A stretch of 64,000 bases of DNA from Candidatus Woesebacteria bacterium RBG_13_46_13 (GCA_001791995.1 MGFR01000001.1:78880-142879); one strand, 5' to 3'. Counted from the stretch's first letter, positions 27,559 to 51,657 are shown. Made by a program: numbers and translations. The notes: generated by a model not told the origin, from the sequence alone.

Positions 27559-27562
27559 CCCA

Positions 27563-28776: not shown

Positions 28777-29131
28777 GGGGCGACCGGTTTCGACGGAAAG
28801 TACTTTAAAAAACTGCAAGCCAAGTTCGATTCACACTTGTCAAAAGGAATCAAAAACAAGCGTCAACTCACAAAGTTACGCTGTAGCCTACGCTTAAAAA
28901 ACGTTTTTAGGTTACTGTTCTTTCGGAGGCGCCTCTTGACCGCGCCGGAAGGGCATAAACCAGTCAAGATGCCGTATCCATCTTTGGTTTGGGCTGGATA
29001 CCCAAGACACTAAACCTTACTTCAGTCAATTTTGTTGTCTTTCTACCTGAAGGAAAATTTAAGGACAACTAAGCTTGTAGTAGTTTTTTAGAAATATTTT
29101 TCGGACGAGGGTTCAATTCCCTCCGCCTCCA
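28776..29131 (+). ncRNA. ssrA: transfer-messenger RNA (tmRNA, ssrA)
   Basis: The 5' end GGGGGCGACCGGTTTCGACGG pairs with the 3' CGCCTCC acceptor. A T-arm GGACGAGGGTTCAATTCCCTCC is present. An internal frame encodes ...SYAVAYA before a stop. Confidence 0.85.
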
Positions 29132-29147
29132 CAAAAGTGTAGTTGGG

Positions 29148-33793: not shown

Positions 33794-34312
33794 GTGAAGA
33801 AAATACTTTTGGCCGCTGCCTTATTTTTGTTTCTTTGGATCGTCTTTCCGCCCCCGGCTTCTGCCGGTCCAACCTGTACTAATCTCGGCGGAAGTTGTAA
33901 GACAAGTTGTTCTTCCAGTGAACAAGACGGCGGCTTATCGGATTGTACAAGAAACCCCAGGGGTCCATCCGAAAAATGCTGTATTCCGGGACAAGCTGTG
34001 GGGCCAACGGCCGGTTGTTCTGATGGAGAATCTATAAATACTGCGATAGGCTGTATCCCGGTTGGAAACACTAATGCGTTTATTGGCTTTATACTGCGCT
34101 GGGCAATAGGGGTTGGTGGGGGAATCGCTTTTCTTTTAATTCTTTACGCCGGCTTTATGATCATGACCTCTTCCGGAAACCCGGATAGGCTTAAGGCGGG
34201 ACAGGAGCTGATGACCTCGGCAATTGCGGGTATAATCATGCTTATCTTTTCTGTATTTGTACTAAGAGTTATCGGAGTTGATATACTAAAACTGCCCGGT
34301 TTTGGAGATTAG
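33794..34312 (+). CDS. TrbC/VirB2-like T4SS pilin with an N-terminal cysteine-rich secreted domain (pilin paralog 1)
   Basis: GTG start. The order is a signal peptide, an 8-Cys region (CTNLGGSCKTSCSS...CC...C...C), then a two-helix pilin core (FLLILYAGFMIMTSSGNPDRLKAG...AIAGIIMLIF) shared with the seven downstream genes. Confidence 0.7.
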   Translation: MKKILLAAALFLFLWIVFPPPASAGPTCTNLGGSCKTSCSSSEQDGGLSDCTRNPRGPSEKCCIPGQAVGPTAGCSDGESINTAIGCIPVGNTNAFIGFILRWAIGVGGGIAFLLILYAGFMIMTSSGNPDRLKAGQELMTSAIAGIIMLIFSVFVLRVIGVDILKLPGFGD

Positions 34313-34314
34313 AA

Positions 34315-34635
34315 ATGCTTGCACAACTTGATTCGTCAGCCTTACAAGATCTGGAAGAAACCGCTTCCCCAAATTTTGCCGGAGGGAAAATCGGAGATAT
34401 CATCACCAACCTCCTTCCCTACCTTTTTGCTGGGGCCGGGCTTTTGTTGCTCCTTTTTCTTCTCTACGGGGGCATAAGCCTAATGCTTTCGCGGGGAGAC
34501 CCCAAGGCTGTTCAGTCCGCAAAGGATAAAATAACTGGGGCCATTGTTGGTTTTGTGATAGTCTTTTTCGCTTACTGGATCGTCCAAATTGTAGGCAAGA
34601 TTCTAGGCATAGAATCGATTGTCCAAATCTTCTAA
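34315..34635 (+). CDS. TrbC/VirB2-like pilin paralog 2
   Basis: 106 aa with a hydrophobic helix, a YGGISLMLSRGDPKAV loop and a second helix. Confidence 0.75.
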   Translation: MLAQLDSSALQDLEETASPNFAGGKIGDIITNLLPYLFAGAGLLLLLFLLYGGISLMLSRGDPKAVQSAKDKITGAIVGFVIVFFAYWIVQIVGKILGIESIVQIF

Positions 34636-34677
34636 CCCTCTTTTGAGTGTATTCCTTTTTTCTGCTAAACTAGAGCC

Positions 34678-34983
34678 GTGAATCATCTTGCTATTGATAT
34701 AGGTGCATCCTTCGGGTCGCCTTTTAGTGAAATCACAAGTGTCGGCGGGCTTGTTTCCACAATCGTTAATCTCGCTTTGGTTGTTGCTGGTCTTATCTTT
34801 CTTGTCATGTTTGTCGTGGGGGGGATAGGTATTATTTCCGGAGCTGGAAGCGATAGCCCGGAGAAGGCCGCAAAAGGAAAACAGGCAATAACAACTGCCG
34901 TAATTGGCTTTGTGGTTGTATTTGCAGCTTATTGGATAGTAAAATTGATTGAAGTCATAACCGGAATTTCAATATTGGGATGA
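34678..34983 (+). CDS. TrbC/VirB2-like pilin paralog 3
   Basis: GTG start, 101 aa, same two-helix architecture (VGGIGIISGAGSDSPEKAAKG). Confidence 0.75.
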   Translation: MNHLAIDIGASFGSPFSEITSVGGLVSTIVNLALVVAGLIFLVMFVVGGIGIISGAGSDSPEKAAKGKQAITTAVIGFVVVFAAYWIVKLIEVITGISILG

Positions 34984-35336
34984 ACAAATTTCTCAGCTTA
35001 AATTCACCTTTCGGGTCGGTCAAGTTGCCTGACCAGATTACCGCAACTTACGGAACGGACGCCGGGGCCGCCATCGGCAAGTTTCTTAATTTTACTTTAA
35101 GGGCAATGATCGTCGGAGCGGGTGTCTATGCCCTTATCAACCTTTTGGTCGCGGGCTACTCTTTTATGGCCGCCGGGGAAGACCCCAAAAAGATTGCGGG
35201 GGCTTGGTCAAAGATTTGGCAAACTCTTTTGGGGCTGGCCTTCGCTGCCGGAGCATTTGTTTTGGCGGCAATTTTCGGACAGCTTATTTTCGGAGACCCA
35301 ACATTTATTCTTAATCCCAGAATTCCGACACCATGA
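34980..35336 (+). CDS. TrbC/VirB2-like pilin paralog 4
   Basis: 118 aa with the loop FMAAGEDPKKIAG. It overlaps neighbours by 4 nt. Confidence 0.72.
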   Translation: MNKFLSLNSPFGSVKLPDQITATYGTDAGAAIGKFLNFTLRAMIVGAGVYALINLLVAGYSFMAAGEDPKKIAGAWSKIWQTLLGLAFAAGAFVLAAIFGQLIFGDPTFILNPRIPTP

Positions 35337-35686
35337 AACACTTAGCCGATATTGAGCTTGGTCCGCTTCGAGGCTTTGGTCCTTTGGGAAATCCGGAAGG
35401 AACGGGGGTCGCAACTTTCAGCAAATTTATCTCTACCATGATTGGTCTGATGACCATCATCGCCATTATTTGGTTTACCTTTGTTTTATTTACCGGGGCA
35501 ATTGCCATGATCAGCGCAGGGGGAGATAAGCAGGCTTTGGAATCTGCAAGAAAAAGAATCATTAACGGGCTTATAGGCCTGGTTGTAGTGATTGCGGCAA
35601 TTTTCATCCTCGATTTGGTCGGAAATATCTTTGGAATTCCTAACATTTTGAATTTCGGACAATTGTTTGAGCAGATTCAACAATAA
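35333..35686 (+). CDS. TrbC/VirB2-like pilin paralog 5
   Basis: 117 aa with the loop MISAGGDKQALESARKR. Confidence 0.72.
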   Translation: MKHLADIELGPLRGFGPLGNPEGTGVATFSKFISTMIGLMTIIAIIWFTFVLFTGAIAMISAGGDKQALESARKRIINGLIGLVVVIAAIFILDLVGNIFGIPNILNFGQLFEQIQQ

Positions 35687-36021
35687 TGCAACTCGCACAA
35701 GAAATTAATAACCCAGCACTGGGTCCCGCTCTTCAGGGGAAATCCGGAGCCGGATTTTTCCAGGCTTTTATCCCAAGCCTGGTGGGTATTGCCTTTGTAA
35801 TCGGGACCCTGGTTTTCTTTTTTGTAATGCTGGCCGGTGCCATCCAGTGGATTACCTCAGGGGGAGATAAGGCCGGACTTGAGGGAGCACGCGGTAAAAT
35901 AGTCAACGCACTGGTTGGTTTTATCGTCCTGCTTGCAACCTTTGCCCTACTGAAGGTAATTGAAGACTTTTTTGGAATCAATATTCTTACACTTGACATT
36001 GGACCTTTGCAAATTCAATAA
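35686..36021 (+). CDS. TrbC/VirB2-like pilin paralog 6
   Basis: 111 aa with the loop WITSGGDKAGLEGARGK. Confidence 0.75.
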   Translation: MQLAQEINNPALGPALQGKSGAGFFQAFIPSLVGIAFVIGTLVFFFVMLAGAIQWITSGGDKAGLEGARGKIVNALVGFIVLLATFALLKVIEDFFGINILTLDIGPLQIQ

Positions 36022-36026
36022 TATAG

Positions 36027-36362
36027 ATGATGTATAAATTGCTGGCGGCCACAGACATCAACCTCAAGCCAAGCGGACAATTCGGACAGTTGGGAAATCT
36101 CACAATCGGAGGAATCGTTTCCGGACTTATCAGGTTTGTTTTAGTGGTTGCGGCCTTGGTTTTCTTCTTTATTTTGGTCATCGGTGGCATCCGCTGGATC
36201 GCCTCCGGAGGAGATAAGGCCCAAACCGAAAATGCCAGAAATCAAATTACGGCGGCGCTGGTTGGCTTGGTCATCGTCTTTGCCGCCTGGGCGATAGTCC
36301 AGCTGATCAACACCTTCTTCGGAATTAACATCTTCGAGCTCTCGATTCCTACCGCTATCTAG
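36027..36362 (+). CDS. TrbC/VirB2-like pilin paralog 7
   Basis: 111 aa with the loop WIASGGDKAQTENARNQ. Confidence 0.75.
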   Translation: MMYKLLAATDINLKPSGQFGQLGNLTIGGIVSGLIRFVLVVAALVFFFILVIGGIRWIASGGDKAQTENARNQITAALVGLVIVFAAWAIVQLINTFFGINIFELSIPTAI

Positions 36363-36399
36363 GCTTGCTCTCCATACTTCATTGAGTTAAACTTTTGTT

Positions 36400-36702
36400 A
36401 TGAATGAAGGTTGTAATGCGATAACCAACGGTGTGGTTCAACTCCGCTATTTAGAGTGTGTTTTCGGAAATGTCGTAAATATCGCCCTGGCTTTTGCCGG
36501 AATCATCCTTTTTATCATGCTTATTTCCGGAGGATTTAAATACATTACCGCCGGAGGTGACCCTAAAGGCATCGAGGGAGCCAAAAAGACTCTGACTTAC
36601 GCTATCGGCGGGATTGTACTTATCGCCTTGTCGTTTCTGATACTTCAATTTATTAAACAATTCACGGGCGCCAATGTTACGGATTTTAAGATCTTCCAAT
36701 AA
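36400..36702 (+). CDS. TrbC/VirB2-like pilin paralog 8
   Basis: 100 aa with the loop YITAGGDPKGIEGAKKT. Confidence 0.75.
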   Translation: MNEGCNAITNGVVQLRYLECVFGNVVNIALAFAGIILFIMLISGGFKYITAGGDPKGIEGAKKTLTYAIGGIVLIALSFLILQFIKQFTGANVTDFKIFQ

Positions 36703-36708
36703 TGAAGT

Positions 36709-38916
36709 ATGAGGTTAAAATTTCTGCTGCATAAACTTCTGACGATACCGCTCCCGTCTGCGTTTGTCCTGACTATAGCTCTGGTTATCCATTCTTTGCT
36801 CTCTACCCCCCTTGCCGACGCCCAGGTGCCTTCTCCTTACGTGTCCTGTGAAGATACAGATAGTCCGGAGTTTCATTCTTTGCGGCCATATCAAAAAAGC
36901 CCCTGTAACCAAGAGGTTACGGAGACTGCAACTTTCTGCGGCAACCGGCTGGTTCTCTCCGATAAAGTTACCGCTATCCAAACCACCCCACCCAGGCTTG
37001 CCAATAACTGTACAGCCATAGGCGGAGGCAGATACCGCTGTACTTATACAGTTTCCGGTAAAACCGCCAACTACGAAATAGACCTGGCCAACGCCCACTT
37101 CCCCATTCTCGGCAACACCGAAGACGTGGCCAACAGCCAGCAATCAACGGACATGAACGACGCAGACAAAATGAACGAGTATGTCAGCTGGTATTTAAAC
37201 GGGGCAACCGGGAGGGCCGAATCCTCCCCGCTTTCCCAAGATGAGGAAGATATCAGAAAACTGGTTGACTTTTCCGGACCCATCAAAAAACTTCTACCCT
37301 TCGACATCCAGAACAATCTACGGGCCAATACCGTCAAAAAGGCCGTTGCAACCAAGGAGGGAGATGGAGATCTACGCCACGACCAGGTTGTCGGCTGTAC
37401 CTATGGGGTCAGAATTTTAGGTAAGGTGATTGGAGGAATTCCAGGCGCTTGTTATGAGACCGGATTAAGAGGCGTGCTTCCCCATATTGAGCACCGGCTC
37501 TCGGAATGGAACAGCCATCTTCCTCCCAAGTCTTCCGACTTTGACAATTTTCAGGACTACTGGAAAAAATATCGGGAGTGGCAAGGAAAGATTTGTTTTG
37601 AGATAGAAATTCCTTTTATGGACAACAAAAAAGTTCTGCTTTGCGGAGAAAATCCTCTTGCTCCCAACTATTACTCTAATCTTTTCGCCAATATTCCTTT
37701 TTCTTCTACAGAGGACCGGGTCGGCGAGGTGGCGGTCAATTCACAATCGGTGGCTCCCGCCTCCGAAGGACTTGAAATAAGTAACGTCTCTCTGGTCACC
37801 ACCCCGGCTGAGCTTTATTTTTCCCACACCGAAGAAGTGGCGGAGTTGGCCAGTATTCTCCAGCTGACTTTTGCCCCGGCAGGGGCATCCACTACCGGGG
37901 GGGCGACCGGGGTCTCCCCGGGTGAGGCTTGTGACCTTAAAGAGATCAGGACAAACCCTGGAGATAATCTTTTTGCAGAATCGATTACCGGAGATTTAAA
38001 ATATGACGCTTCTTTTAGCTGTGACTTCGACGGGAATGCCAGCTCAAGCGCCTGCGCGAAAGATGTCTCCATTGGGTTAGGGGTTATCACCGAAACTCCC
38101 AAGGCAGATGAGCTTTGGTCCCGGCTTGTAGCTGGACCCGCAGGAATCTTTAAAAGAATTTTCCCGAAGGTGGGAGAGGGAGGAGCCATCTTGGGAATCT
38201 TGGATATGCCCGGAGCAACCGGGGTTACCTATTCCGGAAGCGGTCTGGTCTCGGCCGGAAATCCCCAAGGCCGAGCTGGCGAAAGTGCTGAGCTTTACTT
38301 CCCCCATGTCGGAGGTATCTCCGAATATTTCCTTAAAGGAATCCAGACAATACTTCGACCCAAGGGGTTTGGTGAACAGATTCTTTCCGGGGCGGAGGGA
38401 ACCTTCGGTTCTAGCGGGGAGATTGATTGTAACGAGGATGCCCCCAACGTTTCCCTGCGGGGAACCCTAAACCGCCAGGCCACTTTCCAGCTGGCCCTAA
38501 ACTGGGTTTCGGGACAGTCCGGCAATCACGTAATGGAGTGTTATAACGATGTGGTTAAAAGGTCCAAGTCAGAAGGCTTTAACTCCGCCCTGGCTCTTTT
38601 GATCTGGCTTAATGAGAGCAATGCCAGCAACTACAACCTGTCGGTTGAGGATTTCGGAATTCACAGTTCCTCGGTCAGGGGCTTTAGCGCCCAAATAGAC
38701 CAACTTCTCCAACTCCCCAGTTACTACAGAGGTACGTTTCCGCAGTGTTATGGGCGCGGAATGAGCGATATTGAAGCCTTCTTAAGAATCTTTAAAAGCG
38801 GCAACTGCACCAGTAGTGATGGTGCTAATTATTACAGCAACTTAAGGTCGCGCTGGAGTTGGGTGTCTCCAGGGTGTTCTTTTCCGCGCAGCCCGACGGA
38901 TACGACCTGCCCTTAA
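36709..38916 (+). CDS. large secreted cysteine-containing protein, candidate pilus-associated adhesin or tip protein, hypothetical
   Basis: 735 aa with an N-terminal signal peptide and about 20 Cys, and no further transmembrane segment. It lies between the pilin array and the VirB6-like gene. Confidence 0.6.
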   Translation: MRLKFLLHKLLTIPLPSAFVLTIALVIHSLLSTPLADAQVPSPYVSCEDTDSPEFHSLRPYQKSPCNQEVTETATFCGNRLVLSDKVTAIQTTPPRLANNCTAIGGGRYRCTYTVSGKTANYEIDLANAHFPILGNTEDVANSQQSTDMNDADKMNEYVSWYLNGATGRAESSPLSQDEEDIRKLVDFSGPIKKLLPFDIQNNLRANTVKKAVATKEGDGDLRHDQVVGCTYGVRILGKVIGGIPGACYETGLRGVLPHIEHRLSEWNSHLPPKSSDFDNFQDYWKKYREWQGKICFEIEIPFMDNKKVLLCGENPLAPNYYSNLFANIPFSSTEDRVGEVAVNSQSVAPASEGLEISNVSLVTTPAELYFSHTEEVAELASILQLTFAPAGASTTGGATGVSPGEACDLKEIRTNPGDNLFAESITGDLKYDASFSCDFDGNASSSACAKDVSIGLGVITETPKADELWSRLVAGPAGIFKRIFPKVGEGGAILGILDMPGATGVTYSGSGLVSAGNPQGRAGESAELYFPHVGGISEYFLKGIQTILRPKGFGEQILSGAEGTFGSSGEIDCNEDAPNVSLRGTLNRQATFQLALNWVSGQSGNHVMECYNDVVKRSKSEGFNSALALLIWLNESNASNYNLSVEDFGIHSSSVRGFSAQIDQLLQLPSYYRGTFPQCYGRGMSDIEAFLRIFKSGNCTSSDGANYYSNLRSRWSWVSPGCSFPRSPTDTTCP

Positions 38917-38961
38917 TTAGCGTTGTCGGGGCTAACCCCCTGTTGTATGATTAAAAGAAAC

Positions 38962-40482
38962 ATGCTTAAGAAAATACTGCTGTCCTTTCTGGCGTTGTTG
39001 GTCTTATCTTTGTCTTTCGCCCCAACTGCCCACGCCCAACTTAGCGAGGGAAAATGGTACAACCAATCGTTTGGTGAATGGATGGCCAAGGTAAATGATT
39101 CCCCGGAAAACGAAATTTTTGGCGAAAGGTATTCAGCCGCACAGGTCCAATGGGTCATTTATGGACTTTTCTATTTTGTTATCAACTCGGCGACCAACGG
39201 AAACGCATCTGCGCTGTCTTGCTTGATGACTTCAACCGACCTAGACGCCTGTCGGGACGCTATTGAGAATTTGAGAAATTCTTTTCCCGGCACAAGCTCG
39301 GAAACCGGTGGGGATATATCTGGCAATCAACTATTAAAGACAATCTCTGCAAGCCCGATCTCTTTGTCTGCATATCTGAAAGATGTTGGGGGAAGACTTC
39401 ATCTCATCCCAAAGGTTGAGGCGCAAGGTTTCGGCTTCGGAGCGGCCAACCCCGCCCTCACTTTATGGAAAATTTCAAGGAATCTCGCTTACGCTTTCTT
39501 GATTATTGTAATTACGGTTATGGCTTTTATGATAATGTTTCGGGTAAAAATTTCACCCCAAACCGTAATTAGCGTTCAATCCGCTCTTCCCAAAATTGTT
39601 GCGGCCTTGATACTCATCACTTTTTCGTATGCAATTGCGGGGCTTCTGGTTGATCTTATGTATGTGGCCATAGGGCTACTTTCTGCCTTTTTGGTTAATG
39701 GCAGTTCGCCAAGTATTAGTAGTTTTACGTGGAGCCAGATGTTTAATTCTTTAACTGTGGGCAGAAATGTTTTTGACCTATTTATGGCATACTGGTTCCA
39801 GTTTTTTGCTGCAGCCTTTATAAATATCTTTAGCGCGGCGGGGCTTGTCTCCTTTTTTGTTCTTATTTTTACAATCCTGGCTTTTTTCCTACTCCTTTGG
39901 TATTCAGCAAAGGTGATTATTCTACTTCTTAAAACTTATATTCAGATTATGCTACTTATTATTGTCGGGCCGATTCTCATACTTTTAGGGACAATTTCCC
40001 AGGGTGTAGGTTTCGGCTCATGGTTAAGAAGTATGGCCGCCAATTTAGCGGTTTATCCGCTTGTGGGGTTAATGTTTACCCTCGCGCTTCTTTTTGTCCG
40101 AGCAGGACTTCCAGATTGGTGGCCGGTATGGTTGACGCCCCTTGATATAAACACTGGCTTTTTTCAAGGGCCACCGTGGGACCCCCCTCTGACGTTTGGT
40201 ACTGGGGGTGCGTCAAGCAGTCATCTCCTGTGGGTATTGGTTAGCTATGGGATTATTGTTCTTATACCGAAGGTCTCCGATATCGTCCAAGGCTTCATTT
40301 CAGGCAAGCCATTCCCGCTAGGCACGGCGATCGGAGAATCGTTGGGTGGCCCAGTCAAGCCGGTTGCCGGTTATGGGGCTGGGTACTTCGCTGAAAAAGC
40401 CACGGTTTCTACGTCAGGCAAGGGAGGCGTATATAAAGCTATTTCAACCACGCTTGAAAGATTAGCCAGGGGCGGAAGATAA
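38962..40482 (+). CDS. VirB6/TrbL-like polytopic membrane protein
   Basis: Start at the internal ATG 38962 (MLKKILLSF...). There is a signal peptide, a roughly 150 aa extracytoplasmic domain, then 6 to 8 transmembrane helices, as in VirB6/TrbL. Confidence 0.65.
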   Translation: MLKKILLSFLALLVLSLSFAPTAHAQLSEGKWYNQSFGEWMAKVNDSPENEIFGERYSAAQVQWVIYGLFYFVINSATNGNASALSCLMTSTDLDACRDAIENLRNSFPGTSSETGGDISGNQLLKTISASPISLSAYLKDVGGRLHLIPKVEAQGFGFGAANPALTLWKISRNLAYAFLIIVITVMAFMIMFRVKISPQTVISVQSALPKIVAALILITFSYAIAGLLVDLMYVAIGLLSAFLVNGSSPSISSFTWSQMFNSLTVGRNVFDLFMAYWFQFFAAAFINIFSAAGLVSFFVLIFTILAFFLLLWYSAKVIILLLKTYIQIMLLIIVGPILILLGTISQGVGFGSWLRSMAANLAVYPLVGLMFTLALLFVRAGLPDWWPVWLTPLDINTGFFQGPPWDPPLTFGTGGASSSHLLWVLVSYGIIVLIPKVSDIVQGFISGKPFPLGTAIGESLGGPVKPVAGYGAGYFAEKATVSTSGKGGVYKAISTTLERLARGGR

Positions 40483-40649
40483 AATATGCAAGAAAAGGAA
40501 TCGCCGATTAGGGCGGCAAGAAATATAACAGGGGGGGTATCAAGCTATTTTAAAGAAAGAGCCAAAACCGCGGGAACAGAAGCCAATCCAAAAAAGACAT
40601 TTGTTTACAAAACCCTAGGCTGGTTGTTGGGTGGAAGCTCGAAGAAGGA

Positions 40650-42452
40650 TTAGTCTTGCCAATAGCCGGAGTCTTTCGCTACCTCATTTAAAGAATCCCA
40701 CTTCGCCTTGCCCAAGTTGCTGTGCCAAGCCTTGATTGAGTCGAGAATTATTTGTTTCCACTTCCTTCTTTCCGCATCAACCGCTTCCTTAATTTCTCTC
40801 TTGTAGGCTTCTGCTCTGGCTTCGTCGTCCGTATATCTGCGCCTCTTGCCGTCTTCGCCGGTTGCCTGCTCGGTTGACATTATTTCTTTTGCCCTTTTTT
40901 CAAGAGCGCCCGCCCTGGCCTTTCTCCAACGCTCCGGCTGGCCACTTGTTATTAACGAATCACCCACAACGATATGGATCCACCTTCTTACTTCCTTCCA
41001 ATAAAAAGGCTCGAGAAGCCCTTCGACTTTTCTTCCTCTCCAATCATCTCCCCGCATAACTAAAGCTATTCCGGCAGGGCCCGTTTCTCCCGCCTTTCTT
41101 AAAAGCAGAAATGCTCTTAAAAGGTATCCCCTCATTGCCAGCTCGGGAAGTCTGTCCCAAGAAATATCCCCAATATTTTTCCCATCGACCCAAAGTTCTT
41201 CCCACAGGCTTTTTGCAAGAAGCTTGTTGTCCGGAGTGTTGATCGCTGGTATCGTGTTAAACCTTAAGAAGGGGACATGCATACGAACAGGCAGCCCTGC
41301 TAAAATCTTGCCGAACTCCCGATTGCTCTTGGACCGCGGTCCAGCAAAATAGCCGCTTTTTGCCCTGTCTAGGGCCCACACCTGAGGATTGAATATTTCT
41401 GCAAAAGCATCTGACACGGGATAGCCTTCCAGCGTAAACTCGTAGCTCCCTTTTTTCTCTTCAACTTCAGAGCCGTAGTATGCCGCCTGTCCCAGGATGA
41501 AAGATGATATATAGCCTAATTTTTCCGCGATCTCGGCCTGTTTTGCAGCAACCAAATCTTTCGGGTCTTCAGACCTCGAAATAAGCCCTTGGATGGCTTT
41601 CTTTATAATGTCTCTCCTTTCAGGCCTGAGTTTCGAGGCAAATCTATTGATAAAAACCCTCCTTTGGGAAAGAGCGTCCTTTTGTTCTGGTATCAATTCA
41701 TCAAATGTCTTCCCCTCAAGCCCAAGGTCTTTCGCCCAGAGTGCAAGGGTTAAATCGTTAATCCATTGTTCTGCCTTTTCCTTTGATCCAAATAGGGCCA
41801 GAAAACCAGCGGTTCCCTCGATATAATATACCTCATCCTTTAATCGAGGGTCCGCCTTTAGCGCGATGTATTCATAGGCCTTTATTGCATCCCCTATCTG
41901 AGTACCCAACTGTGGCCAATCCTTCTCTGTCTTAAATCCGGGCAATGAAAATATCGTGCGCATCATGTCTGGGGTCACTTCCACGGTAAGCGGACTGATT
42001 GCCGTATTCGCAAGGTATTCTCCGCTACCACGAGAGCGCATATAGTTACCACCGAATTCCATATAAAATTTAAGAATGGCCTTCGTTTCTCTTTCGGCCT
42101 CTCTATAAGCTTCAAGCATGGCGGTATCCGCAGATTTTAGTGGTCTTTGTTCAAAGGCGGCAATGGAGGGCTCCGACTGTTCTTCGAGTTCTGTTACCTT
42201 GGAATGGATTCTGTCTTTTAAAATCCTGGCAGTCCAATCGTCTCCCTCGTCTAAAACATTTTCAAGGAGTCTCCACATCCGCCAGCGCACAACTTCGGGC
42301 CTTTCGGCAGAGGTCAGTTTTTCAACCAGCCCTGGCGACCATTCTCCTTTAGGAACCGTTGGCCCCCCACCCGTCCCGCCTTCCGGACCAGGAGCTGAAG
42401 GCCCACCTCCGGCCCCTTCGGCGGCAGAATAGACTTTTGGTCCTGTTTCCAT
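40650..42452 (-). CDS. hypothetical cytoplasmic protein (600 aa) encoded antisense within the T4SS-like locus
   Basis: Long clean ORF with a Gly/Pro-rich N-terminus (GAGGGPSAPGPEGGTGGGP) and no transmembrane helix. I recognise no domain. Confidence 0.6.
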   Translation of the reverse strand: METGPKVYSAAEGAGGGPSAPGPEGGTGGGPTVPKGEWSPGLVEKLTSAERPEVVRWRMWRLLENVLDEGDDWTARILKDRIHSKVTELEEQSEPSIAAFEQRPLKSADTAMLEAYREAERETKAILKFYMEFGGNYMRSRGSGEYLANTAISPLTVEVTPDMMRTIFSLPGFKTEKDWPQLGTQIGDAIKAYEYIALKADPRLKDEVYYIEGTAGFLALFGSKEKAEQWINDLTLALWAKDLGLEGKTFDELIPEQKDALSQRRVFINRFASKLRPERRDIIKKAIQGLISRSEDPKDLVAAKQAEIAEKLGYISSFILGQAAYYGSEVEEKKGSYEFTLEGYPVSDAFAEIFNPQVWALDRAKSGYFAGPRSKSNREFGKILAGLPVRMHVPFLRFNTIPAINTPDNKLLAKSLWEELWVDGKNIGDISWDRLPELAMRGYLLRAFLLLRKAGETGPAGIALVMRGDDWRGRKVEGLLEPFYWKEVRRWIHIVVGDSLITSGQPERWRKARAGALEKRAKEIMSTEQATGEDGKRRRYTDDEARAEAYKREIKEAVDAERRKWKQIILDSIKAWHSNLGKAKWDSLNEVAKDSGYWQD

Positions 42453-42572
42453 ATTGATATTTTAGCACCTGCTCCTTTCTTCTTACAATCAGCTGTGAAA
42501 AAGGCTACTTCTTGCATAGAAGTGTTCACGCTGTAACCTAGATTTAGAGTATCAAAATAGCTCTCTGTTTTT

Positions 42573-43622
42573 ATGGAACAACAACACGCTATCCCGCAAC
42601 AGATCTCCTCATACCAATTCCGTTTGGTGGGAGACATGACCCTCAAACAATTTTTTCAACTGGCCGGCGGTGCTTTGGTCAGCCTTCTTTTTTACGCATC
42701 CCCATTGCCTGCTCTTATTAAGTGGCCCTTTATCATTTTCTTTGCTCTTCTGGGTGTTGCTTTGGCCTTTCTCCCTTTTGAGGAGAGGCCCCTGGAAAAG
42801 TGGATTGTGGCCTTCTTTCGCTCGGTCTATTCGCCCACTCTCTTTTACTGGCGGAAAGCCCAGGTGCCCGCTGTCTTCTTTCAGGAAGAGGCCGCACCAA
42901 CCGGCCTGGCCCCAGCTCCGCAAAAACCCGCAGGCGGATTTATCTCCATCACCGCCCCCGCAGGAACCGTCTTTTCCAAGCTGGAAGAAGCTGAAAAATC
43001 GTTTTTATCCTCCATCGGCCAGCTTTTTGGCGCAACGGCTCCCTCCGGACCCATCGCAAGCCAAGTTTCCGCACCTCTCCCGGGTGATACAGCCAAAAAA
43101 GAGGACATACAGGTACCCTACAACGCCCCTGTGCAATATCAAGCCGGTCTTGCTCCCAAAGTGGTTGTTGAGGAAAAGCCTGCCCCTGAAGCCGCTCCGA
43201 CAGAGCTTAAAACGACCTCCGTTGCCCCGGCCGTAATGACACAGCGTGTTTACGGCCAAAGGGCCCAGTACTCCATCGAGGCAGCTCCTCCTAATCCCCC
43301 AACCGTTCCCAATACCATCGTGGGGCAAATATTCGACACCCAAGGGAAAATAATCAACGGAGCCATACTTGAAATAAGGGATGCTGCGGGAAGGCCAGTT
43401 AGAGCCTTAAAAAGCAACATGCTGGGCCACTTTTTAATTGTTACTCCTCTGCAAAACGGCAATTACGACATTATCATCGAAAAGGAAGGTCTTAACTTTG
43501 AACCCATCACCTTCGAAGCAAAAGGGGAAATTGTCCCCCCCATGGCCATTAGGGCCAAGGGTGCCCAAAAAATCCTGGCAACCGAAGAGGTCATCTCTAG
43601 CAATCAGATTGCCCAAACATGA
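42573..43622 (+). CDS. VirB3/PrgI-like membrane protein with a C-terminal carboxypeptidase-regulatory-like beta domain
   Basis: The N-terminus (YQFRLVGDMTLKQFFQLAGGALVSLLFY...WPFIIFFALLGVALAF) has the VirB3/PrgI topology, and the gene sits immediately upstream of VirB4. Next comes a Pro/Ala-rich linker, then a beta-sandwich-like C-terminus. Confidence 0.5.
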   Translation: MEQQHAIPQQISSYQFRLVGDMTLKQFFQLAGGALVSLLFYASPLPALIKWPFIIFFALLGVALAFLPFEERPLEKWIVAFFRSVYSPTLFYWRKAQVPAVFFQEEAAPTGLAPAPQKPAGGFISITAPAGTVFSKLEEAEKSFLSSIGQLFGATAPSGPIASQVSAPLPGDTAKKEDIQVPYNAPVQYQAGLAPKVVVEEKPAPEAAPTELKTTSVAPAVMTQRVYGQRAQYSIEAAPPNPPTVPNTIVGQIFDTQGKIINGAILEIRDAAGRPVRALKSNMLGHFLIVTPLQNGNYDIIIEKEGLNFEPITFEAKGEIVPPMAIRAKGAQKILATEEVISSNQIAQT

Positions 43623-44290
43623 AGATACCCTACATATCAGTTCCCGATACCGCCCTGGTCTCTACCACCCAGGCCCACTTACCCGTCGCCGATATCGTCG
43701 ACGATCTGGTTTTGTATAAAGACGGCGGAGCAGCTCTGGTCATGGAGTCGACCTCTTTGAATTTCGGCCTGCTTTCCGAAAAAGAGCAACAGGCGGTGAT
43801 TGCTGCCTATGCTGCCCTGATAAACTCCCTTTCTTTTTCCTTGCAAATCGTCATCAGGACCCAGAGAAAAGATATCTCAAGCTATATGAATTATCTTGAG
43901 GCCATCTCACAAAAAATTACCAATACAAAACTTGCCTTTCTCATGCAAAGCTACAAAAAATTTATTCTGGATTCGATTAAAAAGAAGAACGTGCTGGGCA
44001 AGAAGTTCTATTTAATTATCCCTTTTAGCCCCCTGGAGCTGGGTGTTACCAAATCGCTTTTAACCACGGCCAAAAGAAAAGGGCCTCTGCCTTTTCCAGA
44101 ATCATATGTCTTAAAAAAGGCTAAGGTTGTACTCTATCCCAGGCGGGACCACCTGGTGAGACAGGCCGGAAGGCTGGGGCTTAAACTCAAGCAGCTGACC
44201 AATCTGGGCCTAATGGACCTTTTTTATGACGTTTATAATACCGAAGCGCCCGCAATCAAGAAGGAGGAGGTCTCAAGCGCCATAAAATGA
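43619..44290 (+). CDS. VirB4/TrbE/CagE-family ATPase, N-terminal fragment (split gene)
   Basis: 223 aa resembling the VirB4 N-terminal domain (DIVDDLVLYKDGGAALVMESTSLNFGLLSEKEQ). Its stop overlaps the ATG of the next ORF (ATGA). Confidence 0.65.
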   Translation: MKIPYISVPDTALVSTTQAHLPVADIVDDLVLYKDGGAALVMESTSLNFGLLSEKEQQAVIAAYAALINSLSFSLQIVIRTQRKDISSYMNYLEAISQKITNTKLAFLMQSYKKFILDSIKKKNVLGKKFYLIIPFSPLELGVTKSLLTTAKRKGPLPFPESYVLKKAKVVLYPRRDHLVRQAGRLGLKLKQLTNLGLMDLFYDVYNTEAPAIKKEEVSSAIK

Positions 44291-46086
44291 ACCCGCCAAC
44301 ATCCACCCCAACCACAGTTCCCACCGCTCCCGCCCAAGGAGCAAAACCCAACCTTCCCAAGACCGCCTTCTTTGCTCCCGGTCAAGGGTTTGGAATTCAG
44401 GACATTATCGCCCCCCAATCCCTTGAGACCGAATTTGATTACGTAAAAATCAACAACGTTTATTTCAGGACCCTGTTTGTAGCAGGATATCCCCGTTTTG
44501 TCTCCCCAGGCTGGCTCGAGCCGATAATTAACTTTGACAGCTCTCTGGATATTTCCTTCTATCTTTATCCGGTCGAGGGCAAAACGGTTCTTGATGATTT
44601 AAGAAGGAAGATTGCCGAGATGGAGGCCGAAATCGCCACCGACCTTGAGAGAGGGAAGATTGTCGATCCTTCTACCCAGGCAAAGCTTGAGGACGCAAGG
44701 AACTTGCAGGAACAATTGGTAAAAGGGGCCGAGCGTTTTTTCCAATTTTCTTTTTATATCACCATCCCCGCCTTGACGCTCGAGGAATTAAACCAGTTAA
44801 CCCGACAGGTCGAGTCAACACTTGGCTCAATTCTGGTCGTTGCCAAACACGCAACCCTGGATATGGAAAACGGCTTTATTTCCAGCGCCCCTTTCGGAAT
44901 CGACCGGCTCTCAATCACCAGAAACATGGATACCACGTCTTTGGCAACCACCTTTCCCTTAACCTCCGCTGAGCTCTCCTCGGACACCGGAGTTCTTTAC
45001 GGAACCAACTCCGAAAATGAATCTTTCATTATCTTTGACCGCTTCTCTTTGGAAAACGCCAACATGACTATTTTTGCAACTTCTGGGGCTGGGAAAAGTT
45101 ATTTTGTGAAGCTTGAAGCGTTAAGGTCGTTAATGATCGGGACCGAGGTTATAGTTATCGACCCCGAATCCGAATACAAAGCCCTGGCCGACGCGGCCGG
45201 GGGTGAATTTATCTCATTCTCCTTTTCCTCTCCTTCGAAGATAAATCCTTTTGACCTGTCGCAAATTTATGAGGCGGGCGAAAACCAGCTGGGCTTAAAA
45301 ATTCTTTCCCTGCACTCGCTCTTCAAGGTGATTATGGGTTCAATCACCCCGTCCCAGGAGGCTCTCTTGGATAGAGCTTTGGTCTCAACTTATCGGGCAA
45401 AGGGAATAACCCAGGATCCGGCAACCCAAAAGAAAGAGCCGCCCTTGATGGAGGATTTATATAAAACCTTAATCGGCATGGAGACCGCCGAGGCCATGGA
45501 CTTGGCTGCAAGAATCGAAAAGTTCGTTCGCGGCTCGTTTGTCGGCATCTTTGATAAACAAACCAACGTCAACATCAAAAATCCGTTTACTGTATTCTCG
45601 GTAAAGGATCTACAGGATGCCCTACGTCCCATCGCCATGTTTATCATCCTCGACTTTATCTGGACCAAGGTGAAAAAGGACCTGAAAAAAAGGCTGTTGG
45701 TGGTAGATGAGGCCTGGCACATGATGCGGTATCCCGATTCCGCCCAGTTTCTTTGGTCGGTAGTCAAGCGTGCCAGAAAATACTATCTGGGCCTAACCAC
45801 CATCACCCAGGACGTCGAGGACTTTCTGGGCCAGGATATCGGCAAGGCGATATTGACCAACTCCTCCATGCAGCTGTTGCTCAAACAATCCCCTGCAGCC
45901 ATCGATAAAATCGCCGAGGTCTTTTATCTCTCCCAAGGAGAAAAACAGCTTCTCCTGGCTGCCAACGTTGGTGAAGGAATCTTCTTCGCCGGGCCCCACC
46001 ATGCCCCCATTCGAGTGGTCGCCTCGGAAGATGAGCATAAACTAATTACCACTAAGCCGTTGGAAAGAATGGTTCCGAATATTTAG
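44287..46086 (+). CDS. VirB4/TrbE/TraE-family T4SS ATPase, main part with Walker A/B motifs
   Basis: 599 aa with Walker A TSGAGKSYF, Walker B LLVVDEAWHM, and a C-terminal part typical of VirB4 (AAA_10). Confidence 0.82.
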   Translation: MNPPTSTPTTVPTAPAQGAKPNLPKTAFFAPGQGFGIQDIIAPQSLETEFDYVKINNVYFRTLFVAGYPRFVSPGWLEPIINFDSSLDISFYLYPVEGKTVLDDLRRKIAEMEAEIATDLERGKIVDPSTQAKLEDARNLQEQLVKGAERFFQFSFYITIPALTLEELNQLTRQVESTLGSILVVAKHATLDMENGFISSAPFGIDRLSITRNMDTTSLATTFPLTSAELSSDTGVLYGTNSENESFIIFDRFSLENANMTIFATSGAGKSYFVKLEALRSLMIGTEVIVIDPESEYKALADAAGGEFISFSFSSPSKINPFDLSQIYEAGENQLGLKILSLHSLFKVIMGSITPSQEALLDRALVSTYRAKGITQDPATQKKEPPLMEDLYKTLIGMETAEAMDLAARIEKFVRGSFVGIFDKQTNVNIKNPFTVFSVKDLQDALRPIAMFIILDFIWTKVKKDLKKRLLVVDEAWHMMRYPDSAQFLWSVVKRARKYYLGLTTITQDVEDFLGQDIGKAILTNSSMQLLLKQSPAAIDKIAEVFYLSQGEKQLLLAANVGEGIFFAGPHHAPIRVVASEDEHKLITTKPLERMVPNI

Positions 46087-48450
46087 ATGGCTGACGATTC
46101 TAAATTCAAGACGCCCAGCGAGAAAACCGTTAAGTTCCTCTACGACGGCGTCGTGGCCTTCTATCCCGATGTTGCCAAGGAAGTCTTTCTTTTGGGAAAG
46201 ACAACCCTTCCTTTCCATGAGGCTTGGGGGGGTTTTAAACGTTTGGAGTTTTTGGAGTTTGCTCTAAATTCGACCGGCACGGAGTCCATTGAAGAGGCTG
46301 CGGCCGCAATCAGAGATTGGAAAGAAGGACGGCGCCTTGAACGAACAATCCCAGACAAACTGGACGAAATGGTTGCCAGGCTTGAGGAACAGGAAAGGCT
46401 GTCCCGGGAAAAAGGACAAAAAGCTGCCTCTGCTTATGAAAAGCAGAAGTTGGCCAAGGATGCTCTGCTTGAAAGCCAGAGGGCTAAGGAGACGGTCCCG
46501 GCACCCGTTTCTCCAGCCGTAGAGGCCCCAACTGCATCCCCCGAGGAAGTTTTGGCTGTTGGAGTTAAAACGACTGTTGAGCCGGGGCACTTTGTCCAAA
46601 AGGTAGTCAATAAAACCGTTTCGCTTCCTCTGCGTACGGCCATCTCCTTGGCATATCCCGCAATCAAAGAAAGCGTCGGCCCTGCCCCTGCGACCGCAAT
46701 GCTGCTTTGGGCCAAGGGCGTTCCTAGCCAAAAACTTGAGGGAAAGGCGGTTGCCCTACCCAGCAAGGAGGCTAAGAAGTTCGACGAACTCGTTAAAGCC
46801 ATCAAGGGGATAGAATCTGGCCGCTCTTTGCAAACCAGGATCCTTCAGGCGTCCTTTAGAATTAAAGATGTCACGCTGCTTCTGGGCCCCGATACGGGAC
46901 TAACACAAGCTCAAGTCTCTCTTTTTTTTAATCCTCCGGAAACTGGTGGGGTTGCTGCCATTCCCCACCAGTCTTTCTTTGGGAATCTCGTTTCCCGCGC
47001 TGGACAACAACTGTTCGGAAAGCTTGCCTCTAGGGCGGTTAAAGCAATCGCAACCAAGGCCGGATTGGCAATCGCCGGAGAGGCCGTGGGGACTGCCGCA
47101 GGAACAGAAGCCGGTGCGGCCGTCGGAGCTGCCGCGGGGGGGCCGGCCGCCCCAGTCACGGCCATCATCGGAGCCGTCCTCGGCTGGTTGGCCAGTAAAA
47201 TTCCGGACTTAATCTCCTGGCTAAAAAGAAACGCCAAGGAGTTCGGCGTAGCGGCGGCAGGGCTTCTTGCCGCCGGAGTTTTCTTCAGAAACCCTTTCCT
47301 GTTGGTCGCTGGGCTAGGGGTCGGAGGAATTGCTTTGGGAGCAGGAGGACTGCAGTCAGCCGGAATGGCTGCGGCAGGGGCTGTTCAGGGTGTTCTGGCG
47401 GGAATTACCGGGATGTTGTTGCCGTCTATCGCCGTGCCCGTCTTGGTGTCTTTGGTTGCCGTTCCGGTAGTCGTGGCCCTAATCCTTTTTATTATCAACT
47501 CTGGTGCTTATATCGTTCCTCCCAGCCCGAGCTCGTTATACGGGGCGATTGAGTCTCCTTATATAGGAATAGAGAAGACAGCCAGCCCTGAGTGTATGCA
47601 CCGAGCCGGCTGTCCCGGCTTTGGCCCTGTTACCTACCATGTCAAAATTTGGGCGAAGAAAGGAACCCTAACCAACATCTCCATCAAAAATGAATATGAA
47701 ATTATCAGCAGGACCAATCCGCCCTTTACGCCTCCTTCGGTGCCTGAAATCGACAGCCCCCCCGATTTTATCTCCCCTACCCGCGCCTATGAATTTACCT
47801 ATACGTTAACCGTTGGGCCGTCCCTGGATAACTCCATCGTTTCCGACACGATTACGGTTACCGCCGACGCTCCCGGCCAAAACGGCGCCCTGGCCAGCCA
47901 AAGCGCTGCCGTAATTGTCGGCAACCCTCCAGTTTCCTGTCCTCTCCCTGGAGGGCAATCCCAACCAATTCATTGGTCCTATCATCCCGGTAACGAATCC
48001 GGAGGCCACGGCAGCAACGATTACTGGAGAAGAATGGGCGGCTCATCTTGTAGATACTCGCTACCCCAGGGGGCGAACTGCTATGGGCCCACCAATGGCG
48101 GCAACGTTTGTTCCAATCAGTCATCCACCTGTGATTTCTACGGCTATGCCATGGACGTCTTTCCGTCGGGCAACACTCAGGTTTTTGCCCCCACCGTCAG
48201 GGGTCAAGCCGTGACCTGGAGCTACCAAGGGGGCTTCTCGAACGCCAGCGCCGGCCAAACTTTTATCTATCGATCCGGCTCTTACTACCTGGTCTTAACC
48301 CACCTTTCCCCCGGAGCAGCCACTGGGGGGTCTATCCAATCCGGGCAAAGAATTGGCCAGCTCTTCCCGCAGGGAGGAAACACACACCTGCATATCGAAT
48401 TTTCTGTCTCGGGAAGATACGTCAGGCCAGAAGACTATTTCTGCCGCTAG
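46087..48450 (+). CDS. T4SS-associated membrane protein with a C-terminal M23 (LytM-type) metallopeptidase domain
   Basis: 787 aa. The order is a cytoplasmic coiled-coil N-terminus, a Gly/Ala-rich multi-helix transmembrane region, then the M23 motifs HGSND (HxxxD) and HLH (HxH) near the C-terminus. Confidence 0.65.
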   Translation: MADDSKFKTPSEKTVKFLYDGVVAFYPDVAKEVFLLGKTTLPFHEAWGGFKRLEFLEFALNSTGTESIEEAAAAIRDWKEGRRLERTIPDKLDEMVARLEEQERLSREKGQKAASAYEKQKLAKDALLESQRAKETVPAPVSPAVEAPTASPEEVLAVGVKTTVEPGHFVQKVVNKTVSLPLRTAISLAYPAIKESVGPAPATAMLLWAKGVPSQKLEGKAVALPSKEAKKFDELVKAIKGIESGRSLQTRILQASFRIKDVTLLLGPDTGLTQAQVSLFFNPPETGGVAAIPHQSFFGNLVSRAGQQLFGKLASRAVKAIATKAGLAIAGEAVGTAAGTEAGAAVGAAAGGPAAPVTAIIGAVLGWLASKIPDLISWLKRNAKEFGVAAAGLLAAGVFFRNPFLLVAGLGVGGIALGAGGLQSAGMAAAGAVQGVLAGITGMLLPSIAVPVLVSLVAVPVVVALILFIINSGAYIVPPSPSSLYGAIESPYIGIEKTASPECMHRAGCPGFGPVTYHVKIWAKKGTLTNISIKNEYEIISRTNPPFTPPSVPEIDSPPDFISPTRAYEFTYTLTVGPSLDNSIVSDTITVTADAPGQNGALASQSAAVIVGNPPVSCPLPGGQSQPIHWSYHPGNESGGHGSNDYWRRMGGSSCRYSLPQGANCYGPTNGGNVCSNQSSTCDFYGYAMDVFPSGNTQVFAPTVRGQAVTWSYQGGFSNASAGQTFIYRSGSYYLVLTHLSPGAATGGSIQSGQRIGQLFPQGGNTHLHIEFSVSGRYVRPEDYFCR

Positions 48451-48464
48451 TGTAAAATAAAAAA

Positions 48465-48920
48465 ATGAAGGCTTTTTTAAAGAAATACAGATTCGTTATT
48501 CTCCTGATAGCTATTTTTCTCTTGATCGCTGCTTTCTTGTTGGTCAAAAAAAATCAAAGCCCAGCCCCTTCCCCCACCCCAACCCCTACCCCACTTCAAC
48601 TTGTCCAGTTTTATCCTTCCCAGGGAGAACAAGAAATTGCGGTGCCCTTGGTTGCCCTGGCCTACACCTTTTCGACCCCCGTTGATTCCTCTACTGCAAA
48701 TATTATTATTTCCCCCTTTGTCGGCTTTGAACTTTCAACCGATGCCAGCGGAAAAATTCTCTATATCACCCCCACCGCAGAATGGAAATACGACACTCTG
48801 TACAAGGTTACAATAACGATAAGCTCTAAAGAGGGGGTTACACTTTCTACACCAGTGGAGCATTCATTCCTGTTCAAGAAGGTCAGCAAAAGCAACTTCG
48901 ACGAAAACTGGGCTCTTTAA
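48465..48920 (+). CDS. membrane-anchored Ig-like (Big-type) domain protein, hypothetical
   Basis: 151 aa with an N-terminal transmembrane helix, a PTPTPTP linker and a beta-rich domain. Confidence 0.5.
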   Translation: MKAFLKKYRFVILLIAIFLLIAAFLLVKKNQSPAPSPTPTPTPLQLVQFYPSQGEQEIAVPLVALAYTFSTPVDSSTANIIISPFVGFELSTDASGKILYITPTAEWKYDTLYKVTITISSKEGVTLSTPVEHSFLFKKVSKSNFDENWAL

Positions 48921-50020
48921 GACTGAACCCTGACCGGCATGATTAGGTGGATAAAATCAGGGTCGGAGGCGTCCTTAAAGACCCCTGGTGAGCCTGGGGA
49001 CGAAAGCTCAACCCTGAGTGTCTCTCCCTTAATCGCGTGCAGTAGCTCTTCCAAAAAACGATAGTTAAAGGCAATTTCAAGACCCGGCCCTTCGGTTTTG
49101 GCCTCAACCTGTGTTTTTTGGTTTCCGGCCTGAGAGCTTTCAGCAAGAACTTCGACTGAGTTTTTCCCGATTGAGAGTTTTACAATGTTGGCCGAATCCC
49201 GGGCAAAGACCGAGGCCAACTTCACCGCTCTCAAAAAGTCTTCCTTGTCCAATTCCAGCGAAAGAGAACTTTGCTTTGGCATTATTTTTTCGAAATCGGG
49301 GAAATCCCCCTCCAGAACTCTTGAGGAAAGGACTGTATCCGAAAAACCAAAGACAATCTGGTTTTCCTTTTCTTTGTAGTCAAATAGAATTTCCTGCTCC
49401 TCCGGCGCCAGCCTTAAACACTCTATTAAGGCCGTTTTGGGGATAATTACCCGAGAGTTTAACTTACCCGGCAAGGAGATTTTTTTCTGGGAGAGCCTAA
49501 ACCCGTCAGTGGCAACCAGCGTTAACTTTCCAGAAGCGAAGATCATCAATGCCCCAGTAAGTACTGGTCTGGTTTCGTCTATCGAGGTCGAGAACAAGAC
49601 TTGCCCCAGAGCATTAAGGAAAGGCTCTTTGGGAAAAGGAACGGCCCTGGCTACTTCAATTTTTTGCGGAACCGAGGGAAAATCCGCCGAGTTCATTCCG
49701 GAAAGCACGAGGGTAGAGCTTTGGGATTCGATTTTAAGCTGCTCCTTTTCCGAAGAGATAGACATACTACCAGGAAGCAGGTTGGCAACTATCTCGGTGA
49801 TGGATCTTGCAGGGACCGTAATTTCTCCCTCCTCTTTCACCTGGGCTCCGATTGAGGAGGCTACTGAAATTTCCAGGTTTGTAGAGGCAACAATAAGTTT
49901 TGTTTTGGTCGCCTTAAGCAGGATGTTTCCCAAAACGGGAAGTTGGGCCTTTGGACTAACAAAACGCGAAGCGCTTACCAGGGCCTTGTTTAGGTTTTCT
50001 TGCAAAACTTCTAATTTCAT
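48917..50020 (-). CDS. dnaN: DNA polymerase III beta sliding clamp
   Basis: 367 aa whose N-terminus is MKLEVLQENLNKAL... It lies downstream of dnaA. Confidence 0.9.
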   Translation of the reverse strand: MKLEVLQENLNKALVSASRFVSPKAQLPVLGNILLKATKTKLIVASTNLEISVASSIGAQVKEEGEITVPARSITEIVANLLPGSMSISSEKEQLKIESQSSTLVLSGMNSADFPSVPQKIEVARAVPFPKEPFLNALGQVLFSTSIDETRPVLTGALMIFASGKLTLVATDGFRLSQKKISLPGKLNSRVIIPKTALIECLRLAPEEQEILFDYKEKENQIVFGFSDTVLSSRVLEGDFPDFEKIMPKQSSLSLELDKEDFLRAVKLASVFARDSANIVKLSIGKNSVEVLAESSQAGNQKTQVEAKTEGPGLEIAFNYRFLEELLHAIKGETLRVELSSPGSPGVFKDASDPDFIHLIMPVRVQS

Positions 50021-51576: not shown

Positions 51577-51657
51577 AGCTGTCGGTATACATATGGCTTT
51601 TCTGGAGCAGTGGGGTGCACGAAAGTTAGCCCTATGACCCAATGCACTATTATAAAC

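Follow-up and report, generated by a model that had tools for sequence, protein, structure and literature searches.

Positions 33794-48920 of a stretch of DNA from Candidatus Woesebacteria bacterium RBG_13_46_13, analysed over its full length of 64 kilobases (kb) and referred to here as the window, hold a compact run of genes, mostly on one strand. This run is very probably the origin-proximal chromosomal type IV secretion system (T4SS) of a Woesebacteria-lineage patescibacterium, with a VirB4 ATPase from a clade descended from the monoderm MPF_FATA conjugation machinery. Since every defining feature open to test was found in it, the locus is a member of the described Patescibacteria T4SS clade and not a new system. 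A first-pass annotation made from the sequence alone had placed eight pilins, a Cys-rich protein, a PrgI-like protein, a VirB4 and a Big_5 protein in this interval, and open reading frame (ORF) calls with Pfam and NCBIfam searches bore out that gene content; it had not listed a TrsD-like ORF of 223 residues, a conserved 55-residue ORF or the downstream dnaN and dnaA genes. Its statement that VirD4, relaxase, VirB11, VirB9 and VirB10 are lacking held for the whole window, as a Pfam scan of every ORF returned no VirD4-type coupling protein (T4CP) and none of the others. The best-supported reading is that of a non-conjugative T4SS, which would interact with the host through a VirB2-type pilus assembled across a monoderm envelope. 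Within the window, the evidence also supports the earlier view of a T4SS-derived apparatus with a pilin array and without conjugation-specific genes; the locus lies in the chromosome among housekeeping genes and not in an integrated conjugative element (ICE). The expression "type IV pilus-like" used for it conflates type IV pili (T4P) with the VirB2 pilus of T4SS.

The 599-residue VirB4 (44287-46086, plus strand) matches P-loop_TraG at 2.9e-29, carries a Walker A (ATSGAGKS) and a Walker B motif (LLVVDE), passes the cut-off of the NCBIfam family conju_CD1110 (NF045971; 383 bits against 325), aligning to residues 183-738 of that 752-residue model, and has the monoderm VirB4 4AG5 as its best solved relative (2.2e-45). 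The profile match relates it to MPF_FATA, and its closest relatives with a specific label are nearly all from Patescibacteria or Microgenomates. Directly upstream, the TrsD-like protein (43619-44290, plus strand) matches the NF041427 TrsD family at E 3.9e-7; a sequence search of the PDB found nothing for it. It aligns to positions 107-233 of the 894-residue Mycoplasma-ICE model NF045975 (VirB4_plasma; E 3.2e-7) and the VirB4 to residues 295-893 of the same model; matching consecutive segments of one model, the two proteins together tile a VirB4 of full monoderm length. Natural fusions of both proteins in a single reading frame at two relative loci (L021, 1877-4381, 834 residues; L041, 390-2834, 814 residues; L numbers denote loci of VirB4 relatives) further support the view of TrsD as an N-terminal module split off from VirB4. 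In longer VirB4s, the segment matched by TrsD lies upstream of the VirB4 N-domain. The PrgI/VirB3-like membrane protein (42573-43622, plus strand; PF12666 27.6 bits, cut-off 27) is unusually long, at 349 residues, and continues through a Pro/Ala-rich linker into a C-terminal CarboxypepD_reg-like beta-sandwich (PF13620 E 4.8e-4, residues 248-307), an extension kept in relatives (93 % query coverage).

More than 576 VirB4 relatives were found in the genome collection, and synteny counts were taken on the best 80 of these loci, whose VirB4s are 59-82 % identical to the query and, when specifically labelled, come nearly all from Microgenomates or Patescibacteria. Among these 80 loci, virB4 is accompanied by prgI in 71, by the trsD-like gene in 74 and by dnaN/dnaA in 62. 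The synteny comparison with other Patescibacteria that the first-pass annotation had proposed showed the order to be conserved in the nearest relatives: the whole succession of SpoIID, pilin array, Cys-rich protein, polytopic protein, small ORF, antisense gene, prgI, 223-residue gene, virB4, hydrolase fusion, Big_5, dnaN and dnaA is kept by the ten nearest loci and also by L081 and L083, two copies that are nearly complete. In the window, dnaN (48917-50020) follows the locus directly, and dnaA (50209-51642), rnpA, yidD and yidC come after it. This chromosomal context looks vertically inherited. VirB4 is conserved most strongly (77-88 %), followed by the 223-residue protein (55-75 %) and PrgI (50-70 %), with the envelope-exposed proteins lowest (32-60 %), and the ratio of nonsynonymous to synonymous polymorphism (pN/pS) was 0.02-0.13 for all genes that could be scored against the sister strain, which argues for purifying selection on the genes of the locus.

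The pilin array consists of eight small ORFs on the plus strand (33794-36702), all of which match PF18895 (T4SS_pilin), five of them above its gathering score of 26.6 bits (37.7, 47.7, 28.8, 38.1 and 37.3 bits), and each of which encodes the hydrophobic two-helix hairpin expected of a VirB2-type pilin. Pilin 1 (33794-34312; PF18895 E 1.1e-4, NF045849 E 0.0036) has three hydrophobic segments and is laid out as a signal peptide, an N-terminal domain with eight Cys and a VirB2-like two-helix module; it is followed, within 34315-36702, by pilins 2 (34315-34635), 3 (34678-34983), 4 (34980-35336), 5 (35333-35686), 6 (35686-36021), 7 (36027-36362) and 8 (36400-36702). The paralogues are 23-45 % identical in pairwise comparisons, in line with the mean identity of 25 % given for Patescibacteria pilin arrays in the part of a recent survey that deals with them (PMC12102498). 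Pilin 7 varies least from one relative to another (71-82 % identical in six of them) and is the likely candidate for the major subunit. Pilin 3 matches NF045849, a Mycoplasma ICE pilin-like family, at 9.6e-6, below the curated cut-off; the weak matches of pilins and of the polytopic protein to Mycoplasma ICE families hint that a pilin-like gene may not be foreign to the MPF_FATA lineage.

The sister strain (L083, ENA ERZ27248148 contig k141_5135846) differs from the window in a mosaic fashion. Its segment 17471-19521, compared with 33794-34983 of the window, has the first two pilins replaced by others of 180 and 112 residues, pilin 2 of the window has no nucleotide match in it, and its array is interrupted by an opposite-strand gene for 222 residues; given the replaced pilins and the inserted gene, the proximal end of the array varies at strain level. 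Nucleotide identity between both strains is 95-99 % from pilin 4 through the antisense gene (34980-42452), 81-92 % from prgI through dnaA and 92.6 % in SpoIID. This mosaic points to a recent recombination or sweep of the module comprising the pilins, the Cys-rich protein, the VirB6-like protein and the antisense gene between diverged strains.

The gene after virB4 encodes a 787-residue fusion (46087-48450, plus strand) with a cytoplasmic N-terminal region, Gly/Ala-rich membrane segments (hydrophobic stretches at 389-470), a beta-rich region outside the cell and, at the C-terminus, a putative M23-type metallopeptidase domain (PF01551, E 2.8e-5). Both zinc-ligand motifs are present, HxxxD as HGSND at 641 and HxH as HLH at 767, about 120 residues apart and separated by a Cys-rich insert. 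In relatives, virB4 is likewise followed by homologous, partly conserved genes, and the fusion is the predicted surrogate of VirB1. Downstream lies the gene for a membrane-anchored Ig-like Big_5 protein of 151 residues (48465-48920, plus strand; PF13205 3.8e-9, 37.7 bits), found at the same position in L007, L081 and L083. On the other side, a secreted SpoIID-domain protein with an N-terminal coiled coil (31999-33747, minus strand; PF08486 1.1e-15) is the divergent neighbour of the pilin array, an adjacency already noticed in the first-pass annotation, and its gene keeps this place in L081 and L083; to judge from its adjacency, the protein may have an accessory part in remodelling the cell wall.

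Between the pilins and the VirB6-like gene, also in relatives, lies the gene for a secreted Cys-rich protein of 735 residues (36709-38916, plus strand) with an N-terminal hydrophobic leader and 18 Cys. It matched nothing in Pfam or NCBIfam, a PDB sequence search with its profile was also empty, PADLOC and PHROGs yielded nothing of note, and its 422 homologues are all hypothetical proteins, among them an identical one (100 %) in Candidatus Woesebacteria bacterium RBG_19FT_COMBO_47_8. The family is modular, with a conserved N-terminal part of about 560 residues and an exchangeable C-terminal part of about 170 that occurs in at least two unrelated versions; one of these is an SLT_3 lysozyme-like domain, present in six of 110 homologues (P0177, P0178, P0180, P0192, P0205 and P0207). 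A lysozyme-like C-terminus had been suspected for the window protein from an invariant W..ES.ASNY...DFG motif and is unproven: its C-terminal domain gave no Pfam match, and hhalign comparison with the SLT_3-type C-termini of the six family members was negative. We infer that the protein is a candidate pilus-tip, stalk or wall-acting component.

The next gene (38923-40482, plus strand) encodes a polytopic membrane protein of 519 residues as called, with about eight hydrophobic segments; its true start is probably at 38962, giving 506 residues with a signal peptide, since the called homologue has 506 residues. It had been proposed to be VirB6-like. That assignment found no support from PF04610 or any other Pfam model, either for the protein itself or for the 120 homologues listed, its profile had no match among PDB profiles, and the faint NCBIfam match, to NF045848 only, was not significant. 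What stands is a weak likeness at the level of the fold: the predicted model gave weak scores against TrwI and DotA, with residues 18-158 (the N-terminal, periplasmic-side region) poorly modelled, and the protein may on this basis be VirB6/DotA-like. It is followed by the basic 55-residue ORF (40486-40653, plus strand), which is kept in close relatives, with a called gene of 54-55 residues at the same place in L081, L083, L084 and L085, and is 46 % identical to its L081 counterpart.

Between the VirB6-like gene and prgI, the minus strand encodes a cytoplasmic protein of 600 residues (40650-42452). All ten nearest loci have a long opposite-strand ORF (528-923 residues) at exactly this position, and the pairwise similarity of these ORFs is almost nil; the slot is thus a conserved position whose sequence diverges fast. 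An exhaustive HMMER search of 1.84 billion representatives returned only 14 relatives of the 600-residue protein, and its iterated profile reached the positional counterparts in L003, L004 and L006 and found no link to the antisense genes of L005, L007, L008, L009, L011/L012, L015, L017 and L023. The gene encodes a real protein, and its pN/pS of 0.13 against the sister strain indicates short-term purifying selection. In the confidently predicted structure (predicted local distance difference test score, pLDDT, 82.5; predicted template modelling score, pTM, 0.84), a disordered N-terminus rich in Gly and Pro precedes a body made up entirely of helices, and the protein had no family match in Pfam, NCBIfam, PADLOC or PHROGs, no specific structural neighbour, no secretion signal and no toxin or enzyme domain. 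We considered a degenerate T4CP and rejected it, there being no Walker A motif, family match or ATPase-like fold. In four more distant Microgenomatia loci, a VirD4-type coupling protein of about 730 residues is encoded antisense, directly upstream of prgI (minus strand; L043 1036-3237, L046 5550-7745, L050 5716-7902 and L064 5515-7707); those of L043 and L064 match DUF87, TrwB_AAD_bind and TraG-D_C, and those of L046 and L050 were assigned by close homology to them. The slot, and its occupation by VirD4 in other Microgenomatia, go beyond the descriptions given in the relevant parts of the accounts cited below. That it is a lineage-specific specificity cassette, with the antisense protein as cognate substrate, effector or coupling adaptor in place of a T4CP, is an unlikely proposal that we put forward tentatively.

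The earlier view that the locus falls outside the described canonical systems is outdated, as the sections bearing on it in three reports describe systems of this kind (PMC10633639, PMC12102498, PMC12857230). In the sections concerned, Wang et al. (2023) show by transposon sequencing that the T4SS and its in-cluster pilin array are essential for epibiotic growth of Southlakia epibionticum and state that this T4SS has no recognisable relaxase or coupling protein (PMC10633639). In the parts of their survey of 3035 genomes that bear on these loci, Quinonero-Coronel et al. (2025) describe a VirB4 clade of Patescibacteria that is monophyletic and lies within MPF_FATA, TrsD, PrgI, VirB6 and M23/LysM hydrolases as components, arrays of 2-11 VirB2 genes that are especially common in Microgenomatia and Saccharimonadia, a location near dnaA, dnaN and rnpA in Microgenomatia and Paceibacteria, and a scarcity of VirB6 in Microgenomatia (PMC12102498). 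A 2025 FEMS review, in its pertinent part, regards such systems as forming a new subgroup of T4SS (PMC12857230), and tubular structures at the parasite-host interface have been read as possible T4SS pili (bioRxiv 10.64898/2026.06.21.733656). Like the prototype of S. epibionticum ML1 (SEML1_0006-0019), the window locus has an MPF_FATA-related VirB4 with TrsD beside it, PrgI/VirB3, tandem divergent PF18895 pilins and peptidase-type wall hydrolases after virB4; its cluster is likewise without relaxase or coupling protein, and its chromosomal place beside dnaA, dnaN and rnpA is the one reported for Microgenomatia and Paceibacteria. It differs from the prototype in belonging to Woesebacteria/Microgenomatia and not to Saccharimonadia, in having eight pilins instead of six, and in a VirB6 equivalent that is not detectable by hidden Markov models (HMMs). 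The 735-residue Cys-rich family, the 55-residue ORF and the hypervariable antisense gene are additional features of the window, which the relevant sections of PMC12102498 and PMC10633639 do not discuss.

Further likenesses lie with conjugative systems. With MPF_FATA systems (pGO1 TrsD/TrsE, CTn2 CD1110, pCF10 PrgI/PrgJ/PrgH/PrgK) the locus shares a VirB4 above the CD1110 cut-off, a layout of TrsD, PrgI, polytopic VirB6-type protein and wall hydrolase, and the lack of a VirB7/9/10 outer-membrane core. In contrast to them, it has no relaxase, T4CP, VirB8-like protein or PrgB-type adhesin, possesses a VirB2-like pilin array, generally absent from Gram-positive systems, and is fixed in the chromosome instead of residing on a plasmid or ICE. 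The Mycoplasma ICE genes Mbov_0395/0396/0397 (MMCAP2_0565/0566) are similar in that window pilins match the Mbov_0395 family (E 9.6e-6), the TrsD-like protein and VirB4 match consecutive segments of the Mbov_0397 VirB4 and the polytopic protein faintly matches families of the neighbouring transmembrane protein; the family names and consecutively numbered tags suggest a similar order of pilin-like gene, transmembrane protein and VirB4. The Mycoplasma systems, however, are bona fide conjugative ICEs with a single pilin-like gene, and all of these matches to Mycoplasma families are below the curated cut-offs. The polytopic protein has no detectable sequence similarity to VirB6 of R388 (TrwI) or to DotA of the Legionella Dot/Icm system.

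On the reading of a non-conjugative, host-directed T4SS, VirB4 would form a hexamer, with the separately encoded TrsD-like protein supplying the N-terminal module that completes it, dock on PrgI/VirB3 and the VirB6/DotA-like protein in a single membrane, pull the two-helix VirB2-like pilins from the membrane and polymerise them into a pilus or tube, with pilin 7 probably as the major subunit and the divergent paralogues probably as minor or variant ones. The M23 fusion, the SpoIID protein and possibly the 735-residue protein would either breach the cell wall or be located in the stalk or tip. The assembled pilus or tube would reach the host bacterium, and epibiotic life could be aided by adhesion, by transfer of macromolecules in one direction or the other, or by both, and not by relaxase-dependent conjugation. 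Here we infer pilus assembly, the cargo and the roles of the 735-residue, 55-residue, antisense 600-residue and Big_5 proteins. Several results weigh against this reading. Three pilins fall below the PF18895 threshold (pilin 1 at 22.6 bits and two of pilins 2-8 at 13.0 and 16.0 bits); the M23 domain has its two ligand motifs in place, with a PF01551 score of 24.7 bits that lies under the cut-off of 28.7. The TrsD-like protein is under the curated cut-off of 200 bits, and no significant similarity emerged when the TrsD family was compared, profile against profile, to the N-terminal domain of the VirB4 next to it, which argues that TrsD is an extra N-terminal segment and not a duplicate of the VirB4 N-domain. 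No VirB8-like protein was identified at the locus. In most of the Patescibacteria genomes of the 2025 survey, VirD4 homologues lie at a great distance from virB4 (PMC12102498), and a T4CP or relaxase may likewise lie outside the 64 kb here. Finally, the essentiality data come from a member of Saccharimonadia, S. epibionticum, in experiments that included no member of Microgenomatia.

Three other explanations were weighed. The lack of relaxase and T4CP in the window would suit a DNA-uptake machine like Helicobacter ComB or archaeal Ced, feeding a ComF/ComEC pathway; DNA uptake was one of two functions suggested in the first-pass annotation, which had pointed to an upstream ComFC. A ComF-like gene does lie 5.5 kb upstream (27653-28327), and co-localisation of T4SS loci with comF, recG and radA is reported for the ABY1 class in the section of the 2025 survey on gene neighbourhoods (PMC12102498); the link is positional only, however, the gene being cut off from the locus by smpB, the transfer-messenger RNA (tmRNA) gene and four other unrelated genes. 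The VirB4 has sub-threshold matches to the archaeal import ATPases CedB (1.1e-14, 54 bits against a cut-off of 700) and CedD, but the CedB score is far under that for conjugative VirB4 families (383 bits, CD1110). In S. epibionticum, moreover, transformation proceeds through T4P and ComEC, and cells survive the loss of comEC but cannot do without the T4SS and pilin array, according to the part of the review dealing with competence (PMC12857230). We therefore consider DNA uptake improbable. Still less probable, to the point of being very nearly discounted, is an ICE that has its transfer module here and its relaxase and coupling protein outside the window. The VirB4 is above the cut-off of a family of conjugative elements (NF045971), a VirD4-type T4CP occupies the antisense slot in L043, L046, L050 and L064, and the mosaic identity to the sister strain implies recombination across the locus. 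Against this, the locus lies between SpoIID and dnaN-dnaA-rnpA-yidD-yidC, an arrangement recurring in dozens of genomes; Pfam scans found no integrase domain among the ORFs of the window, and GC content (0.45-0.54 in the locus, close to that of the flanks) does not shift at the locus borders. The 2025 survey, in the sections on these points, moreover gives a nearest relative in the same class for 99.3 % of VirB4s and relaxases in only 103 of 3035 genomes (PMC12102498).

The remaining explanation refines the non-conjugative, host-directed reading more than it opposes it. The apparatus would be a machine for effector export or contact-dependent action with a substrate encoded in its own cluster, the antisense protein being an effector or specificity adaptor. 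The conserved slot with its hypervariable sequence, the confidently predicted fold with a disordered N-terminus, the short-term purifying selection on the gene and the presence of a substrate-recruiting T4CP in the slot of other lineages all speak for it. The protein lacks, however, a secretion signal, a toxin or enzyme domain and a structural relative, and position alone is no sign of secretion; a regulatory role, or a fast-evolving gene with no relation to the system, would fit just as well. We hold this version to be rather unlikely, though less so than DNA uptake.

As for the genomic setting, the surroundings in the window comprise genes of glycolysis and the pentose-phosphate pathway, rpoD, dnaG, transfer RNA (tRNA) genes, the tmRNA gene, smpB, the ComF-like gene and valS. 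Neither promoter-like sites (16 against 14.4 expected from shuffled sequence) nor terminator-like sites (37 against 25.7 ± 5.0 in shuffled sequence) were clearly above expectation in the locus. The segment 26153-29132 is a dense patch of RNA genes with four tRNA-Ser genes, one tRNA-Arg gene and, beside smpB, the tmRNA gene (28776-29132, tag VNSQSYAVAYA); two mechanically called ORFs (26249-26815 and 27446-27649) run into tRNA genes and are unlikely to be genuine. At 17900-21700, beside a tRNA-Asn gene (21613-21687), GC content drops to 0.37-0.42 from about 0.48-0.50 in the flanks. The five minus-strand ORFs of this segment (133, 105, 217, 260 and 398 residues) matched no family in Pfam, PADLOC or PHROGs, apart from an N-terminal SEC-C motif in the 398-residue protein, and the segment is probably a small island gained by horizontal transfer.

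The locus is a clean, complete Microgenomatia example of a recently described system and contains nothing categorically new. The Patescibacteria T4SS bears on how these ultra-small episymbionts live and is essential in the one tractable species, and the locus offers three leads on its function: a candidate for the VirB6 that HMM surveys report as scarce in Microgenomatia, Rosetta-stone fusion evidence that TrsD is the detached N-terminal module of VirB4, and a positionally conserved, hypervariable in-cluster gene that may encode a substrate or an adaptor. If the antisense slot were indeed a specificity cassette, it would give a first handle on what this essential machine transports.

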